From IMG/VR virus record IMGVR_UViG_3300005253_000530: a stretch of 26,300 nt of DNA; one strand, given 5' to 3'. The translations under genes were made by a program, and so were the position numbers. A model generated the notes under the pieces. That model did not search any database and was not told where the DNA came from. It worked only from the letters and a program-made list of their open reading frames with translations. Source of the stretch: a virus (taxonomy: Duplodnaviria > Heunggongvirae > Uroviricota > Caudoviricetes). Below, in pieces: positions 10,200 through 26,300 of this stretch (positions are counted from its first letter, which is position 1; the number at the start of each line of letters is the position of its first letter).

Positions 10200-10271
10200 T
10201 GGAGGGGATGGAGGGAATTAAACCCTCATCCAGTGGGTTGCAATCACTGTACCGGATCACCGAACACCCCC
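10200..10271 (-). tRNA. Compact tRNA-Cys(GCA)-like gene with tRNA-Pyl-type architecture
   Basis: GGGGGTG-T-TCGG TGAT CCGG-TA-CAGTGA TT GCA AC CCACTG-GAT-GAGGG TTTAATT CCCTC-CATCCCC-T-CCA. Confidence 0.7.
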
Positions 10272-12814: not shown

Positions 12815-13144
12815 TTATCTGTCTTCAAATTTGTTTAGATATTCTAATAGATCTTCTTCGTTTTTATATCCGAAGTATTTATCAGTATAAATTATATTTA
12901 TATCTCCGCTATAAAATGGAGATTTTTCTATCTCTTCAAGCGGCTTTACTGTAGCAAACGATTCACAATCCCAGTGGTGCTCTTCAAAAATAAAATTATC
13001 TCCAAATTTTATTCGGGAAATAGCAAATGATTTCCTTGGAGGTATTCATATACCATAGTTAGCATTACGTGCTGCTATTCTATAGAGGTATCCACCTTTG
13101 AGGTCTTTTATTTTTAGGTATTCTTTGATTCCTTTTGTAGCCAT
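12815..13144 (-). CDS. 109-codon gene with one in-frame TGA (readthrough gene or pseudogene)
   Basis: AGGAGAG RBS; MATKGIKEYL...NYGI*IPPRKSF...LNKFEDR then TAA; TGA at 13046-13048. Confidence 0.65.
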
Positions 13145-13223: not shown

Positions 13224-13715
13224 ATGCATAAATGTACTAATTTACTATGTGATAATGAAACAAATAATCCTAAGTTCTGTAGCAGATCTTGTGCTGTGTC
13301 TTACAACAATCAAAAATTTCCTAAGCGCATCAAACAAAAATATTTTTGTAGAGTATGTGGTATTGAGATATTTTCACGCCGTCTTTTCTGTGATGCACAC
13401 AACCCACAAAAAGTGGATTGGTCAAAAAGAACAATAGAAGAGGCAGTTACTTACCACAATGGTGCTTCTAATAGATATGGTAGAATACGAGATCATGCTA
13501 AGCGCACCTATCGAAATTCAGATAGACCAAATAAGTGTGAAAAGTGCGGATACCATAAACACTATGAAGTATGCCACATAAAACCTATTTATTTGTTCAG
13601 TTTGAACACCATTATTTCTGTTACTAATGATATAAACAACTTAATAGCTCTATGCCCAAATTGCCATTGGGAATTTGATAATGGTTTATTTGCTCCCACC
13701 AGGAATCGAACCTAG
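13224..13715 (+). CDS. HNH endonuclease with N-terminal Cys-rich domain
   Basis: FCSRSC; CEKC...EVCHIKP...NNLIALCPNCHWEFD. Confidence 0.9.
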   Translation: MHKCTNLLCDNETNNPKFCSRSCAVSYNNQKFPKRIKQKYFCRVCGIEIFSRRLFCDAHNPQKVDWSKRTIEEAVTYHNGASNRYGRIRDHAKRTYRNSDRPNKCEKCGYHKHYEVCHIKPIYLFSLNTIISVTNDINNLIALCPNCHWEFDNGLFAPTRNRT

Positions 13716-14789: not shown

Positions 14790-14806
14790 AACTATTTCCT
14801 TTCGTG

Positions 14807-14877
14807 AGCGGACATGGAGAATTGAACTCCAGTGAACAGGGTGGAAGCCTATCGCATTACCACTATGCTATGCCCGC
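14807..14877 (-). tRNA. tRNA-Gly(TCC)
   Basis: GCGGGCA/TGTCCGC, T73, CT TCC AC loop. Confidence 0.93.
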
Positions 14878-14880
14878 ATT

Positions 14881-15126
14881 TCATTCTTTTTGCCAAAATT
14901 CTATGTAATATGCTGTTGGTGGAGAAGCAGCAGTACCGTCTTTACGATAGAAAGAATGATCTTTTGTAATTATTCTGTTTTTAGTAATTTTTGTTACTCT
15001 AGAACCAATGTCGTATAATGCTCCCCCGGAGCAAGGCCCGTCTCACGCATCAAAAATTACATCACCGACTTTGATTCTTGAGTAATTGCCATGTAATATT
15101 TTCTTAGTTTTATCTCTTTTTGCCAT
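14881..15126 (-). CDS. 81-codon gene with an in-frame TGA at codon 28 (candidate selenoprotein or readthrough gene)
   Basis: AAGGAGAG RBS; ...KVGDVIFDA*DGPCSGGALYDIG...EFWQKE; TGA at 15043-15045. Confidence 0.65.
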
Positions 15127-15150
15127 AATTCTCTCCTTTATTCTATTGTT

Positions 15151-20829: not shown

Positions 20830-21443
20830 TCTACCAAGTTCTCCAACTCAGACCTTTCTATTGGCCATGCACTTTGTCTTGATAGATTAAGTGTGACAAG
20901 TTTAATGCCTTTGTTAGCCATCTCTGTCACAGCCTTTGTTCCGTCTTCAGGATTGATATTTACAGCCCTGATAGCATCACCTAGCAAGAACACTTCTCCG
21001 CCGAATTTCTCCACGGCATCAAGTGCTGTGGCTTTGACACAATAATCGGTAGCTAACCCGCACACAAATAACCTTTTGGCTCCCATTTCCTTTAACATAT
21101 TGGCCAGATTTGTTCCTTCGAATGCCGAGTAAGCTTCTTCGTCCCACCCTTTGTCTATCAATGCAACAGCTGAAGTGTCTGGAAATTCAATGCCAGAGTG
21201 TATTTCCATTCCATAAGTACCATCTACACAATGGTCCGGCCATGTTCCACCCTGATCAGTGAATGATGGATGCCCTTTCTTGTGTCTGTCCCTGGAGACT
21301 ACCACTTTCCTGAACTTTTCTATGTACTTATTGATTGCTGGTGCTAAACTTTCTGCTCCGGGAACTGCCAAGCTACCAGTAATAAAATCGTTTTGAAAGT
21401 CTACAACGATTAGTACATCCGTTTTCCTGTCTATTTTTGTCAT
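20826..21443 (-). CDS. pncA: Nicotinamidase
   Basis: VVDFQNDF, SRDRH, WPDHCV, GLATDYCVKATALDA. Confidence 0.95.
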   Translation of the reverse strand: MTKIDRKTDVLIVVDFQNDFITGSLAVPGAESLAPAINKYIEKFRKVVVSRDRHKKGHPSFTDQGGTWPDHCVDGTYGMEIHSGIEFPDTSAVALIDKGWDEEAYSAFEGTNLANMLKEMGAKRLFVCGLATDYCVKATALDAVEKFGGEVFLLGDAIRAVNINPEDGTKAVTEMANKGIKLVTLNLSRQSAWPIERSELENLVE

Positions 21444-21447
21444 AATT

Positions 21448-21861
21448 CTATCCTCCATAGAGTAAAAATTTAGTCTTTATGTTCTTGAAATATGGAGCCC
21501 ACTCTTTCTTATCATCTAACATCATGTCGACCCCATGCTTCTCACATATTTCGGCCTTGGCTTTCCACCATTCCTCGTCGTGAGACCACCACCTTCCTCT
21601 TTCATCTTGCCACATCTCCACGCCCTTTTCTTTCAGGTGATCCACCACTGAGAATATCTCATCGAAGTGTAATCCGCGACAGATCTTGTGTTTTTCTAAC
21701 TCTTTCCTTATATCTTCCTTTGGAGGCCCTGATATTATGTATATGTCGATTGGTTTATATTCACCAAATCCTATCATGAGCCACTCAAGTCGAGCAAGTC
21801 GAGACTGAAACCACTTTGGATCATCATCTATAACACCGTGTAAATCTATTCCAATTATCAT
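21448..21861 (-). CDS. HAD-like hydrolase (variant motif I)
   Basis: IGIDLHGVID; KAEIC; MLDD; start reassigned out of tRNA-Tyr. Confidence 0.6.
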   Translation of the reverse strand: MIIGIDLHGVIDDDPKWFQSRLARLEWLMIGFGEYKPIDIYIISGPPKEDIRKELEKHKICRGLHFDEIFSVVDHLKEKGVEMWQDERGRWWSHDEEWWKAKAEICEKHGVDMMLDDKKEWAPYFKNIKTKFLLYGG

Positions 21862-21876
21862 AATAATTTTCCTGTG

Positions 21877-21960
21877 TGGGGGAGACTGGAATCGAACCAA
21901 CAAGGTCACAATGACGGTCGGGTTACAGCCGACAGAGCCCACCACCTGCTCAACTCCCCC
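21877..21960 (-). tRNA. tRNA-Tyr(GTA)
   Basis: GTCGG CT GTA AC CCGAC; variable arm GTCA/TGAC; A73. Confidence 0.93.
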
Positions 21961-21964
21961 TTAT

Positions 21965-22099
21965 TTATTTCTTTAATTTCTTATAGCATTTCTTACAAAC
22001 TGCTCCATATCTATTACATCCATCTTTATCTGTAAAGAATATGCTATAAAAGGTTTCTATTTTTTTACTACATTCCCAACAATATACCATAGATACCAT
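21965..22099 (-). CDS. 44-aa Zn-finger protein (not in ORF track)
   Basis: CWEC...CKKC. Confidence 0.55.
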   Translation of the reverse strand: MVSMVYCWECSKKIETFYSIFFTDKDGCNRYGAVCKKCYKKLKK

Positions 22100-22103
22100 G
22101 TTT

Positions 22104-22550
22104 TTATTCCTCCAACTTTCTTATTACTATATCAGCCAACTCTTTTGTCAATCCTGTCTCTGGATCACACCAGACTAAATGACTTGATATAGAGCCCATA
22201 TCTGTGTTGTCGTCCAATATAACGAACGAGGAGACGTCATACTCTGACTTCCTATACTCGCATATGAACTTCTCTATTTCTTCTCCTCTAGGACCGCCTG
22301 AGAGCTTTACAAGGGATGTTTTACCCACTATTTCACCCTTTATTCCTACAGAATGTAATAGATCTGATAATTCTTGGTAGCCCATGATATTTTTCCAACT
22401 GCTACTGATTACTATCTTTGCCCCAGTATACTCCGTAATTCGATTGAGAGCGGCTACACATTCTGAAGAGAATCTCTTTTCTATAGGTCTGCTGCCCCAG
22501 TTACTGATAGTATTTAGAACTCCATCTATGTCGAGAAATATTATTTTCAT
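22104..22550 (-). CDS. HAD phosphatase of the type associated with RNA repair
   Basis: IFLDIDGVL, IVISSSWK, RGEEI, FVILDD, ETGLT; start reassigned out of tRNA-His. Confidence 0.8.
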   Translation of the reverse strand: MKIIFLDIDGVLNTISNWGSRPIEKRFSSECVAALNRITEYTGAKIVISSSWKNIMGYQELSDLLHSVGIKGEIVGKTSLVKLSGGPRGEEIEKFICEYRKSEYDVSSFVILDDNTDMGSISSHLVWCDPETGLTKELADIVIRKLEE

Positions 22551-22561
22551 TCTTTTTCCTT

Positions 22562-22651
22562 TGGGGTAACCGACGAGCCTCGAACTCGCACATTCTTCAC
22601 AGAATACAGGGGCCACATCCCTGCGCGTCTACCATTTCCGCCACGGCTACC
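22562..22651 (-). tRNA. tRNA-His(GTG) with long variable arm, G-1:C73, CCA encoded
   Basis: G-GTAGCCG TG GCG GAAATGGTAGA CGC G CAGGG AT GTG GC CCCTG TATTCT GTGA AGAATG T GCGAG TTCGAGG CTCGT CGGTTAC C CCA. Confidence 0.85.
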
Positions 22652-22654
22652 ATA

Positions 22655-23431
22655 TTATCTATATAGATGAGCTTTATAAGCTTTTTCTACTGTCTCATCC
22701 CAACTATCATCATCAAACGGATCAACTACCCCTTGTGGACATGTAGATGATGATCCATCTGGGAACATCCATAATGCTTTAAGGGTCACACATCTCTTTT
22801 CACATCCAGCACATGCTGACCCTCTGTTCTCTTGTTTGCCAGTAAATCTCGTTGAAATACCCTCTTCGAAGTGATCTATAAAGAAATCTATACGGGCTTG
22901 GAGATATTTTTGTATCTCGCAATTGAAATCGGCAAATAACTTAACCTTTATGCCAGCTTTTATATAGAAGCCAATTATATCTATTAATTGATGGTTTGGT
23001 TGATCCTCTGTGATTACAATTTGAACCACCATATCCTTGGCATGATGTGCAAAATCTCTTACTACATGATCTTTGTGAGTAACTCCTACATGCCAGCAGT
23101 CTACATAACGTATACGATCTGAATTTAAAGCCATGCCATTTGTTACAACCTTTATTACATCACAGTAACCTTTTGCATGATGGAGTATAAAATCAAGCCA
23201 AGGATGTATGCCTGGCTCACCCCCAGAGAAAGTAACTATGGACTTTTCCTTTATGGACTTCATAAAAGTTCCGTATGCTCTCAGACAATCCACTGTATCC
23301 ATAGGAGACACACACTGTGCTGGCCTCTTGGGCTGAAAATCGTTGAGACAAAAATGACAATTCTTATTGCATTGATTAGTCAGTAAAATTCTTAACCTGA
23401 ACTCATCTCTATGTATAGTTTTATCAAACAT
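22655..23431 (-). CDS. Radical SAM enzyme (MoaA-like N-terminus, C-terminal Cys cluster)
   Basis: CNKNCHFC (CxxxCxxC), FSGGEP, VVTNG; CAGCEKRC...TCP. Confidence 0.9.
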   Translation of the reverse strand: MFDKTIHRDEFRLRILLTNQCNKNCHFCLNDFQPKRPAQCVSPMDTVDCLRAYGTFMKSIKEKSIVTFSGGEPGIHPWLDFILHHAKGYCDVIKVVTNGMALNSDRIRYVDCWHVGVTHKDHVVRDFAHHAKDMVVQIVITEDQPNHQLIDIIGFYIKAGIKVKLFADFNCEIQKYLQARIDFFIDHFEEGISTRFTGKQENRGSACAGCEKRCVTLKALWMFPDGSSSTCPQGVVDPFDDDSWDETVEKAYKAHLYR

Positions 23432-23678
23432 CTCCGTTACCTTTATCGATGTACTTATATTTTGCTTTTATTTCTCTGAGACCCTGTTTTATTTCTTTAT
23501 ACGATACTTTATGACTGCACTCTTTGCACACATAAATTTCCTCGCGCTCTTTGCCATATATCAAATTGTCAGAGAAATTTACTGGATGAAATTCAATAGA
23601 AAATGTGTATTCCTTACTGAATTGTGTATGTCCACAAGATATACATACGAAATATTCTTTAATTATTTCTTTTGCCAT
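23424..23678 (-). CDS. Zn-ribbon protein
   Basis: CISC...CKEC. Confidence 0.7.
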   Translation of the reverse strand: MAKEIIKEYFVCISCGHTQFSKEYTFSIEFHPVNFSDNLIYGKEREEIYVCKECSHKVSYKEIKQGLREIKAKYKYIDKGNGDV

Positions 23679-23690
23679 AATTCTCTTCCC

Positions 23691-24011
23691 TTATTCATAT
23701 GTTTTTATTTCTATAACAACATCTCCTTCATCGATATAGGCATTATCAAAAAGTCTTAGCGTCATGATTATTCTACCTTCACAGTTCGGGGTGCTTTCTG
23801 TATAATAGTTTGTTAGATGTCGTAGTAAATCGACTATACAAGTATTTGCATCTAACCGGCATAGTGGCGTCCCCCTAAAAGTACTATTTTTTACCCACTC
23901 CAGTAGGTCTTTCTTCCATTTTTCAATCTCCTCCATAAACTGTTTTTCGTCGCTGTGGATGTATAGAACTGGAGATCTCCAACCGTCTTTATCTATTAGC
24001 CTTAAAAACAT
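23691..24011 (-). CDS. Hypothetical protein
   Basis: AAGGAG RBS; 106 aa. Confidence 0.7.
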   Translation of the reverse strand: MFLRLIDKDGWRSPVLYIHSDEKQFMEEIEKWKKDLLEWVKNSTFRGTPLCRLDANTCIVDLLRHLTNYYTESTPNCEGRIIMTLRLFDNAYIDEGDVVIEIKTYE

Positions 24012-24023
24012 AATTCTCTCCTT

Positions 24024-24227
24024 CTAACTATAATCATATTCCATGTATTCTATAGATAGGTCAGCTCCACATAGTGGGCATTTTGGCCAATCCGCTTCCA
24101 GAGCAGTCGTTAGTGTATATGTCTTCTTGTATATTCTGCTCTTTTCATTCACATATTTACATAAGCATCTATACTTAACATAAAAGCTGCTTACTTCGTC
24201 ACTTGATAATCTAACTACGCCACTCAT
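24024..24227 (-). CDS. Zn-ribbon protein
   Basis: CLC...CPLC; AAGGAGAG RBS. Confidence 0.65.
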   Translation of the reverse strand: MSGVVRLSSDEVSSFYVKYRCLCKYVNEKSRIYKKTYTLTTALEADWPKCPLCGADLSIEYMEYDYS

Positions 24228-24237
24228 AATTCTCTCC

Positions 24238-24504
24238 TTACAACTTTTTTTCTAACCGTTTAACTTCTTTTTTTTTACGTTGTATATCTCGTTGTATCTG
24301 CCCTTTGAGTCCGGCTCGGCCTTTTTCTTTAGTGGTGAACACCCAATTTGTTAGAATTCTGTATCTACTATATTCATCTTTTACATATAGTGTGGGATGT
24401 TCATCAGACAAGGGTTGAGCTCTCCTGCTGACTAAAACACCTTCCTTTAATTCATTCCAGGTATTATTAATATACCATACTTTTTGGCCTGCTTTTAATA
24501 CCAT
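24238..24504 (-). CDS. Hypothetical protein with coiled-coil tail (start reassigned)
   Basis: GGGGG RBS; LKAGQKVWY. Confidence 0.65.
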   Translation of the reverse strand: MVLKAGQKVWYINNTWNELKEGVLVSRRAQPLSDEHPTLYVKDEYSRYRILTNWVFTTKEKGRAGLKGQIQRDIQRKKKEVKRLEKKL

Positions 24505-24522
24505 AATTCTTCCCCCTTTATA

Positions 24523-24608
24523 TGGAGGAGAACAGAGGAATCGAACCCCCATGTTTTACCACGCCCCTGGGTTCAAACCAGGTTGCCGACCATTCGGTAG
24601 TGCTCTCC
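24523..24608 (-). tRNA. tRNA-Ser(TGA), folds as an 8/4 allo-tRNA type
   Basis: GGAGAGCA/TGTTCTCC 8-bp acceptor, 6-bp D-stem with 4-nt loop, long V-arm, 4-bp T-stem, T73 CCA. Confidence 0.75.
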
Positions 24609-24613
24609 TTATT

Positions 24614-24689
24614 TGGCACCGGGCATAAGATTTGAACTTATATTGGCGGGGTCAAGGCCCGCTCTCCTAGCCTATTGAAGGAACCCGGT
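24614..24689 (-). tRNA. tRNA-Gln(TTG), C33 and A1-U72 variant
   Basis: ACCGGGT/GCCCGGT G CCA; GCGGG CC TTG AC CCCGC. Confidence 0.85.
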
Positions 24690-24890
24690 TCATTTTCTTT
24701 CTTTTTCTGCCTCAGTTATTAGTTGAGCTAATAGTTTATTCACTTTTCTTTTCGATTTTATTAGTTCTCCTTTATTAAATTCCCATCTAACATCACGTAT
24801 ATGTTCTACCATTTCTCGAATCATAAATTTAGCTTCTATTGATTTTTCAGTTATTTCATCTGCTGGTGATCTCTTAATTGTTTTATCCAT
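24690..24890 (-). CDS. Helical hypothetical protein
   Basis: GGAG RBS; TGA abuts the tRNA-Gln start. Confidence 0.6.
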   Translation of the reverse strand: MDKTIKRSPADEITEKSIEAKFMIREMVEHIRDVRWEFNKGELIKSKRKVNKLLAQLITEAEKERK

Positions 24891-25248
24891 TGTGTTCTCC
24901 ATGTTGCTCTGCCCAGTTAGTTATTTTTTTGTACCCCTTAGTTGGCCTGTTATATAAATAGATCCAAACATCCTTCTGACCTATTTTTATTTTTTTTCTT
25001 TTGTACACACCCCAAAAAGTGCCTTCATTCAAATCGATCAGTAGTTTTTGTAATATAGGCCATCTGAGCATCTTAATTTCCCCATCTATATAATCTGACT
25101 GGTCGCCTTTTGTAACGCCCGCAGTCCCGCTCGATCTTAAATACATTTTGTGTCCGTACAATCTGTGCTTAACAGTACCTGGTTTTGGTATACACCATGC
25201 TTTTGTATTACCGTCTTTTAATTTGCCATAAACAAATATTTTATCCAT
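24883..25248 (-). CDS. Gamma-glutamylcyclotransferase (AIG2-like) family protein
   Basis: IFVYGKLK...IDGEI...LIDLNEG...YKRKKI...VWIYLYN pattern. Confidence 0.7.
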   Translation of the reverse strand: MDKIFVYGKLKDGNTKAWCIPKPGTVKHRLYGHKMYLRSSGTAGVTKGDQSDYIDGEIKMLRWPILQKLLIDLNEGTFWGVYKRKKIKIGQKDVWIYLYNRPTKGYKKITNWAEQHGEHNG

Positions 25249-25261
25249 TTAATTCTCCTTT

Positions 25262-25345
25262 TGCCAGAGATGAGACTCGAACTCACACGCCCTATGGACA
25301 CCAGTTTTTGAGACTGGCATGTCTACCTGTTTCCATCACTCTGGC
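25262..25345 (-). tRNA. tRNA-Leu(CAA)
   Basis: Class II body; CT CAA AA loop; A73. Confidence 0.95.
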
Positions 25346-25741
25346 TTATGCTTCATCTTTAGGTACAAACCCATGGCATTCTGAATCTATACACGTAAAT
25401 CCATTCCTTGATAGCTTGCAGTTATCGCAGCTGTATCTAGATTCGTGATGTGGGTATCCACCTTTTTCACACTCGACCCTATGTTTTATCATGCTCTCGT
25501 TTTTCTTTTTATCTGTACGTTCTTCCTTTTGTGTTTTTATAGACCTTGTTAAAATATGTTCACATTCTAAAGTCATGACTGCTTGTAGTACTATGTGAGA
25601 AATATCTCTAAGAGAATACCCTTTTTCTACCCATTTTTTAAATATAGGATCGATAGCTTTACATGTTTGGCTATCTAAAATGTTTCCATCTTCATTGTAA
25701 GAGTCATATTTTTCATTAAATAGTAATTTTTTACTCATCAT
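25346..25741 (-). CDS. Hypothetical protein with Cys-rich tail (start reassigned)
   Basis: AGGGGA RBS; stop abuts the tRNA-Leu(CAA) start. Confidence 0.7.
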   Translation of the reverse strand: MMSKKLLFNEKYDSYNEDGNILDSQTCKAIDPIFKKWVEKGYSLRDISHIVLQAVMTLECEHILTRSIKTQKEERTDKKKNESMIKHRVECEKGGYPHHESRYSCDNCKLSRNGFTCIDSECHGFVPKDEA

Positions 25742-25752
25742 TAATTCCCCTT

Positions 25753-25836
25753 TGCCGAAGGTGGGAATTGAACCCACACGCTCTATGAGCACTGGATTTT
25801 AAGTCCAGTATGTCTGCCTGGTTCCATCACTCCGGC
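25753..25836 (-). tRNA. tRNA-Leu(TAA)
   Basis: Class II body; CT TAA AA loop; A73. Confidence 0.95.
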
Positions 25837-26043
25837 TTATCCGTATATGATTATTCGATTATTTTTATCTTTCTCAATGTGTAGTTGTATACCTTTATCC
25901 AATTCATCTCTTTCATATGGTATCAATAGCGTTCTAGGTTTTGATATTTGTATGTATACATTTCCACCTACTTCTTTTCTTATCTTTTCTAGTTTAGCAA
26001 TAAATTTGTTCAGTGTGTCTTGCACGTCGTAATATGAGCCCAT
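25837..26043 (-). CDS. Hypothetical protein
   Basis: AGGAGG RBS; stop abuts the tRNA-Leu(TAA) start. Confidence 0.7.
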   Translation of the reverse strand: MGSYYDVQDTLNKFIAKLEKIRKEVGGNVYIQISKPRTLLIPYERDELDKGIQLHIEKDKNNRIIIYG

Positions 26044-26054
26044 AGTAAATCCTC

Positions 26055-26216
26055 CTATTTATGCCTAGGACAAGTTAGTCCCATCTTTATACCTACTTCT
26101 GCTTCCTTTTTTAAATCGTTGCCACACCTAGGACATACAAATATTTTTACCGCTTTTATTTGTCTGTTGGTCATTATACATATTATTTCGTTGCATTTAT
26201 TACATTCTATTCTCAT
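26055..26216 (-). CDS. 53-aa Zn-ribbon protein (not in ORF track)
   Basis: CNKC...CPRC...CPRH. Confidence 0.6.
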   Translation of the reverse strand: MRIECNKCNEIICIMTNRQIKAVKIFVCPRCGNDLKKEAEVGIKMGLTCPRHK

Positions 26217-26300
26217 GATAATTAGAACCTGTTTAGTGTTATCGAATACGACTTTTTACATCCTTTACATGTAAACGAAATACCTATACCCTCAGACCAG

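Follow-up and report, generated by a model that had tools for sequence, protein, structure and literature searches.

In this work we address how a phage treats a UGA codon that interrupts one of its small genes, at a position where close relatives carry cysteine and just ahead of a hairpin that resembles a bacterial SECIS element. The gene, called gene A, lies in a stretch of 26,300 nucleotides (the window, meaning the whole stretch of DNA that was analysed), which according to record names is a tRNA-rich part of an uncultured giant phage from marine sediment. The GC content of the phage is low (37%), and under the standard code the window has a compact gene map. A preliminary description of the locus proposed that host SelB directs selenocysteine (Sec) to this codon, and kept Trp readthrough or a nonsense mutation as fallback alternatives. 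These alternatives are now better supported than Sec, since a second gene of the window, gene B, has an in-frame TGA at a Trp position and since the UGA of gene A is lineage-specific. The reading that we favour, to which we give a little less than an even chance, is that the two genes carry leaky nonsense alleles which the phage tolerates and in which UGA is read at a low level, most likely as Trp.

Gene A and its codon 28

Gene A, its signals and the gene that follows it are arranged as follows:

15126..14881, minus strand: gene A ORF, 81 codons plus stop, with one in-frame TGA (sequence and translation)
15138..15131, minus strand: Shine–Dalgarno sequence of gene A, AAGGAGAG, 4 nt 5' of the ATG at 15126..15124
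15045..15043, minus strand: in-frame TGA of gene A, codon 28, in the context D-A-stop-D-G-P-C-S-G-G-A-L
14883..14881, minus strand: terminal TGA of gene A (sequence and translation)
14877..14806, minus strand: tRNA-Gly(UCC), starting 4 nt past gene A (ARAGORN; Rfam tRNA, 61.5 bits)

The ORF exists as it had been described, and the strong ribosome-binding site, the TGA at codon 28, the 53 open codons beyond it and the terminal TGA are all seen in the sequence; its location on the minus strand had been left unstated. The 53 sense codons downstream of codon 28 include no ATG, GTG or TTG, and directly 3' of the internal UGA stands GACGGGCCU, followed by the hairpin. Sequence comparison indicates that gene A is a genuine conserved small phage gene, because a search of 5.8 billion proteins returned 12 independent full-length homologs (81–88 aa, 56–80% identity, E 1e-23 to 1e-37). 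With a profile, 48 family members were recovered among 1.8 billion cluster representatives, and each of the 14 homolog DNAs of gene A is full length. No Pfam model matches the family, PHROG 25621 (unknown function) is reached at an E of 0.01, tblastn against phages yielded chance matches only, and no relatives were found in viral contigs and genome contigs. A public protein record (P0002, JGI/IMG, two contigs, the longest of 90,300 bases) gives the gene A product as 82 residues with W at both TGAs; the collection that includes it lacks the gene B read-through product. The gene index has no entry for the exact read-through product.

A look-up of the neighbouring 73-aa protein gave contigs assembled from three runs of one marine-sediment project, and four of them (L019, L020, L021 and L023) cover the internal TGA of gene A. 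These four are 99.99–100% identical to the window with zero differences in gene A, and the TGA is unchanged in all four. Being identical in the assemblies of three runs, the TGA is not an assembly error, an outcome that the preliminary description had held out as a possible undoing of its proposal and that failed to materialise. The TGA of gene A is real and fixed in the sampled population. A second strain of the phage is present in the same sediment sample set: contig L026 is 99.74% identical to positions 21315–26300 of the window (13 mismatches in 5 kb), and this strain, whose coverage excludes gene A and gene B, coexists in one sediment sample.

The homologs align colinearly with gene A and place a single codon opposite the TGA, which rules out bypassing or frameshifting at this codon. 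The aligned residue is Cys in 12 of 12 database homologs and the codon is TGT in 12 of the 14 homolog DNAs; the two most distant of these DNAs have GGA (Gly) and GAA (Glu), one each. Compared with its relatives, gene A thus differs at codon 28 by one T-to-A change at the third position (TGT to TGA). The preliminary description had let the aligned residue decide, Cys speaking for Sec and Trp for readthrough or mutation. It is Cys (TGT) in all close homologs, which is a point in favour of Sec, and Trp, whose presence was to have told against the proposal, is not what these homologs carry. Nevertheless, the Cys alignment cannot separate Sec from a simple nonsense change at codon 28, since one substitution leads from TGT to TGA and only one phage carries the TGA. 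Codon 28 is a sense codon, never UGA, in the 14 homolog DNAs and in six metagenome loci, and this restriction of the UGA to a single lineage argues against Sec.

The wider family also bears on the proposed chemistry. At position 28, the 32 family representatives compared have C, G or another residue, some of them with an extra residue nearby; Gly is the commonest residue in distant members, and Cys28 is conserved within the nearest subfamily. Cys32 is also replaced in several of these representatives, and the two cysteines do not co-vary and form no obligate pair. A catalytic redox C-x-x-x-C centre, the kind of site where Sec is usually found, is therefore not evident. Cys28 and Cys32 are each dispensable in the wider family, a further point against Sec. 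Since position 28 varies across the wider family, a substitution there may be tolerated. On the side of Sec, the AF2 model of the protein places Cys28 at the end of a beta-strand and Cys32 before a short helix, and redox motifs often sit at a strand end or before a helix. The origin of the phage also fits, as Sec-using bacteria are common in marine sediment.

The hairpin downstream of codon 28

The structure at issue is the following:

15033..15019, minus strand: hairpin UGCUCC-GGG-GGAGCA, which encodes the invariant C-S-G-G-A and whose stem begins 9 nt past the UGA

The 6-bp stem with a G-containing loop 16 nt downstream, reported earlier, is present: it has six Watson–Crick pairs and a 3-nt loop, GGG, the first base of which is the 16th nucleotide past the UGA, and its energy is -7.4 kcal/mol alone and -10.6 kcal/mol with an outer helix. 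The bSECIS model specifies an apical loop of 3–9 nt, an upper stem of 4–16 bp, a G in the first two loop positions, a UGA-to-loop distance of 16–37 nt and an MFE of -7.5 kcal/mol or lower (PMC13188914). With a loop of 3 nt, a stem of 6 bp, a loop start at the 16th nucleotide and -7.4 versus -7.5 kcal/mol, the gene A hairpin stands at the lower limits throughout. The fit to the bacterial SECIS model that had been claimed holds for the geometry, but spacing and energy are at its extreme edge; the first point favours Sec, the second weakens it.

How unusual such a hairpin is depends on the comparison. An ungapped bSECIS-type filter is satisfied at 0.7% of codon positions in the genes of the window, by 4% of synonymous re-codings of the gene A peptide and after none of 10 ordinary TGA stops tested, a comparison that includes the terminal TGA of gene A. 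The rarity among coding positions and the absence after ordinary stops support Sec. So does the stability of the hairpin, which is the highest of 15 family sequences because TGC and TCC replace the TGT and TCT or TCA of most relatives; TGC, TCC and GGG, all used in the hairpin, are rare codons, TCC making up 6% of Ser codons and TGC 25% of Cys codons. In contrast, the 60-nt fold after the UGA is ordinary (z = 0.06 versus shuffles, with 55% of re-codings equally stable), which argues against Sec. The strength of the hairpin is the sole positive evidence for Sec besides the Cys alignment, and we rate this evidence as moderate.

The history of the hairpin points away from a dedicated element. The invariant C-S-G-G-A peptide determines three of its six pairs, the other three depend on third codon positions, and the same 6-bp stem forms in 8 of 14 relatives without the UGA, where it includes one or two G-U pairs and has energies of -3.3 to -5.7 kcal/mol. 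As the stem is present in relatives that have no UGA, the hairpin predates the UGA and is not specific to Sec. Conservation and covariation of the hairpin, which had been named as a check, gave a negative result: no relative has the UGA and hairpin as a pair, and the hairpin by itself, in weaker form, occurs in the Cys forms. With the UGA in one lineage, there is no conservation or covariation to examine.

It is unlikely, in our judgement, that gene A is a phage selenoprotein caught at birth, with SelB using the pre-existing CSGGA hairpin as a SECIS element. The probability that we do leave to it comes from how strong and how precisely placed the hairpin is, and from the single mutation that would suffice. 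For this to hold, SelB and Sec-tRNA of the host would have to read UGA28 with the help of the structure in the CSGGA codons, which we consider improbable. The single T-to-A change would have come first and two synonymous T-to-C changes would then have strengthened the stem, an order of events that is possible but doubtful. On this view gene A would be a newborn phage selenoprotein with a U-x-x-x-C motif and the allele of gene B, leaky or dead, would have nothing to do with it; we give this combination a low probability.

A second in-frame UGA and the state of both genes

When the window is translated with TGA as a sense codon, gene B is the only protein-like ORF revealed besides gene A, from which it lies 2 kb away. 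Its features are:

13144..12815, minus strand: gene B, 109 codons, a conserved small gene that ends flush against tRNA-Asp
13048..13046, minus strand: in-frame TGA of gene B, codon 33, aligned to a nearly invariant Trp
13035..13016, minus strand: AU-rich hairpin GGAAAU-N8-AUUUCC, weak, 10 nt past the gene B TGA

Between the two genes, inside the minus-strand cluster of tRNA and small genes, lies an HNH endonuclease gene on the plus strand (13224–13715; PF13391 in the identical contig L019).

Gene B has 64 homologs, the closest intact one being 91% identical, and its UGA aligns with the Trp of Y-G-I-W-I-P, encoded by TGG in four homolog DNAs. The TGA is unchanged in L019, L020 and L021, the three assemblies that cover gene B. 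A hairpin signal common to both UGAs was considered and rejected: the gene B hairpin is weak (z = -1.65), it is absent in the closest homolog, and it fails the bSECIS-like filter, as its loop does not start with G and its stability is too low. A perfect 6-bp hairpin 9–10 nt past the codon occurs at 1.3% of positions, by a criterion picked after seeing the data.

An in-frame UGA at a Trp position, without a bSECIS-type loop, is an argument against Sec in this phage. It shows that a route to in-frame TGA other than Sec exists here, and the defect at a Trp codon makes a tolerated, partly read-through stop likelier than selenocysteine. It also supports leaky reading directly, since Trp is the residue given by misreading of UGA. 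On the alignments, no single inserted residue would restore both the gene A and the gene B proteins. Against leaky reading, Trp would not be a conservative substitute for Cys28 of gene A, which is kept in 12 of 12 database homologs and 12 of 14 homolog DNAs. Leaky reading also leaves unexplained the strength of the gene A hairpin (0.7% of positions, 4% of re-codings, two rare codons).

Both genes might instead be dead, that is, dispensable accessory genes knocked out recently, which would give no useful full-length protein and whose ORFs would have had no time to decay; we regard this as rather unlikely. It would account for each TGA being one substitution from the ancestral codon and limited to one lineage, and it is in line with TGA being a normal stop in the window and with no decoding device having been found in the ~32 kb read. 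Diversity among the near-identical contigs is very low, and the alleles may accordingly be young. Judged as pseudogenes, both genes have a premature stop relative to intact homologs and show neither relaxed selection nor further lesions. In gene A, the homolog alignment reveals no stop or frameshift beyond the internal TGA, gene B is also free of a second lesion, and every family-invariant residue is kept in both. Downstream of the TGA, dN/dS versus the nearest relatives is 0.1–0.27 for gene A and 0.05 for gene B, compared with 0.09–0.22 between intact homologs. Both genes are still under purifying selection, which is strong in gene B. Hence either the mutations are very recent or they do not prevent the protein from being made, and for the genes to be dead both mutations would have to fall in roughly the last 5–10% of the branch, as estimated from dN/dS. 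The fixation of both alleles in three samples is a further difficulty for this explanation.

The kind of lesion matters as well. Two of ~60 genes are interrupted, both by TGA and each one base from the ancestral codon (TGT and TGG), and in an unsystematic look no lesion by TAA, TAG or frameshift was noticed in any gene. TGA makes up 27% of the possible single-base nonsense changes in these genes, so that two independent lesions would both be TGA with a chance of ~0.07 when nonsense changes only are counted, and lower when indels are included. With both lesions being TGA, and none of the other kinds noticed, the evidence speaks against dead genes and leans towards a UGA that is tolerated through some reading.

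Decoding of UGA and known parallels

ARAGORN finds 16 tRNA genes in the window and seven more in the 6 kb past its end, to which one compact tRNA-Cys-like gene is added. The search for a UGA-reading tRNA combined ARAGORN, Rfam at the gathering threshold and at E <= 10, and a scan for YUUCAR loops on 5-bp stems. It yielded no UCA-anticodon tRNA and no tRNA-Trp in the ~32 kb read (window plus 6 kb) of a contig listed at 90.3 kb, which counts against leaky reading. Nor was a tRNA-Sec or sel gene seen in these ~32 kb, a point against Sec. For tRNA-Ser (24523–24609, minus strand) and tRNA-Tyr (21876–21960, minus strand), the Rfam tRNA-Sec model beats the general tRNA model, at 36.8 and 31 bits with a threshold of 47. 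The tRNA-Ser was rejected as a tRNA-Sec: its anticodon, which was checked, is UGA, and it reads UCA codons. L014, a relative with a homolog of gene A, has next to it an RtcB RNA ligase that is called as two ORFs (100 and 355 aa), the first of which retains an intact metal-binding Cys motif. This split RtcB (L014:3061-4463) was dismissed as a sign of Sec use, as the split is by TAG and a change of frame and involves no UGA; it could reflect a frameshift, an intron or a sequencing fault.

TGA is the ordinary stop of 13 of 59 window genes (22%), gene A among them, and the window has 127 in-frame TGG versus two in-frame TGA. Genome-wide recoding of TGA (code 4) is ruled out by these two TGA versus 127 TGG and by the compact map under code 11, for the readable part; the counts cover early-type gene regions only. 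They also imply that any read-through is inefficient or context-dependent.

Another dedicated decoding, in which UGA would be read as Gly in a code 25 host or as Cys by a tRNA-Sec-like tRNA-Cys, or would be changed by A-to-I editing, appears very improbable. In its favour, Gly occurs at position 28 of the distant family members more often than any other residue, and the phage has several odd tRNAs. These include the compact tRNA-Cys(GCA)-like gene, which lies at 10271..10200 on the minus strand and was missed by ARAGORN (Rfam tRNA, 26.6 bits versus a gathering threshold of 29 bits); it has a 7-bp acceptor stem, U73, CCA and the anticodon loop UUGCAAC. However, the anticodon of this tRNA is GCA and not UCA, so that it is a Cys tRNA and no UGA reader. 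Moreover, neither Gly nor Cys fits the Trp site of gene B, just as Trp does not fit the Cys site of gene A, and 127 TGG versus two in-frame TGA and 13 TGA stops make a host with long-term recoding unlikely.

The leaky nonsense alleles that we favour could have arisen and be read as follows. In one phage lineage, Cys28 of gene A would have changed from TGT to TGA and the Trp codon of gene B from TGG to TGA. A fraction of ribosomes would pass the UGA, most likely with insertion of Trp, while the majority would stop. The decoder might be the ordinary tRNA-Trp, or a UGA-reading tRNA encoded beyond the 32 kb read. Full-length product would be made in reduced amounts; that of gene B would have the wild-type sequence, and that of gene A would be a C28W variant. 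We infer the occurrence of read-through, the inserted residue and the tRNA responsible; as general background, UGA is the leakiest bacterial stop codon and is misread mainly by tRNA-Trp.

The Q-beta A1 readthrough protein is an example of a leaky UGA stop read by tRNA-Trp. The phage genes resemble such cases in the proposed minority read-through to a longer product and, for gene B, in a UGA at Trp. They differ in that the UGA lies inside a conserved domain and not at a natural gene end, and in that a lineage-specific UGA looks like a tolerated mutation rather than an evolved two-product device. Nonsense pseudogenes are similar in that one base change has created a stop in a gene which all relatives keep intact, but here selection is unrelaxed, there are no further lesions, and two genes are affected, both by TGA and both with alleles fixed in three samples. 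A third parallel is offered by stop-codon-recoded phages and by their relatives with the standard code and suppressor tRNAs, in which the acquisition of a suppressor tRNA lets in-frame stops accumulate (Borges et al., 10.1101/2021.08.26.457843), a point in favour of leaky reading. Our phage shares with them low GC (37%), large size, a very large tRNA set and in-frame TGAs, one at Trp. In contrast, it has only two in-frame TGA in ~32 kb, TGA stops 22% of its genes, and the part read includes no suppressor tRNA, while recoding in those phages concentrates in structural and lysis genes.

Compared with bacterial SelB/SECIS selenoprotein genes, of which E. coli fdhF is the prototype, gene A has a UGA where homologs have Cys, an apical loop started by G on a 6-bp stem right after it, and a terminal UGA without a hairpin. 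It departs from them in that no relative conserves the UGA together with the hairpin, that the hairpin is older than the UGA and largely a by-product of CSGGA, that spacing and stability are at the minimum, and that Cys28 is no family-wide catalytic residue. The viral selenoproteins named in a review of recoding are poxvirus glutathione peroxidases (PMC8310308), a 2026 review of prokaryotic selenoproteomes makes no mention of phage or virus (PMC13188914), and we found no phage selenoprotein described in the literature searched. Were gene A to be one, it would add a phage-encoded selenoprotein and would illustrate the one-step origin of a Sec codon beside a structure that coding constrains. Selenium at residue 28 would make it a phage selenoprotein with an origin traceable to individual base changes. 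If the ordinary reading is correct, gene A is a cautionary case for selenoprotein hunting: a UGA at Cys together with a SECIS-like hairpin can come from one mutation where the peptide motif forces the hairpin, and the test that matters, conservation of the UGA among relatives, fails for gene A. The pair of UGAs, one at a Cys and one at a Trp codon, both fixed in genes that evolve like intact ones, offers a cheap experimental handle on how UGA is read.

The predicted gene A protein

The AF2 model of the gene A protein is a small beta-barrel (pLDDT 94.7). Foldseek against the PDB gave no match below an E of 0.6, the highest VIA-align Z was 5.6, for CHAP-type amidase barrels and Tudor/SH3-like domains, which is in the range of a common arrangement, and scores in the Atlas feature comparison were <= 0.85. 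The profile region 14–56 (V-G-D-x-V-F ... G-P-C-S-G-G-A) is matched by three to nine separate stretches in each of several long proteins (P0106 and P0122–P0126, 778–1694 aa), and the strand-plus-glycine-loop unit of gene A may thus occur as a repeat in large proteins.
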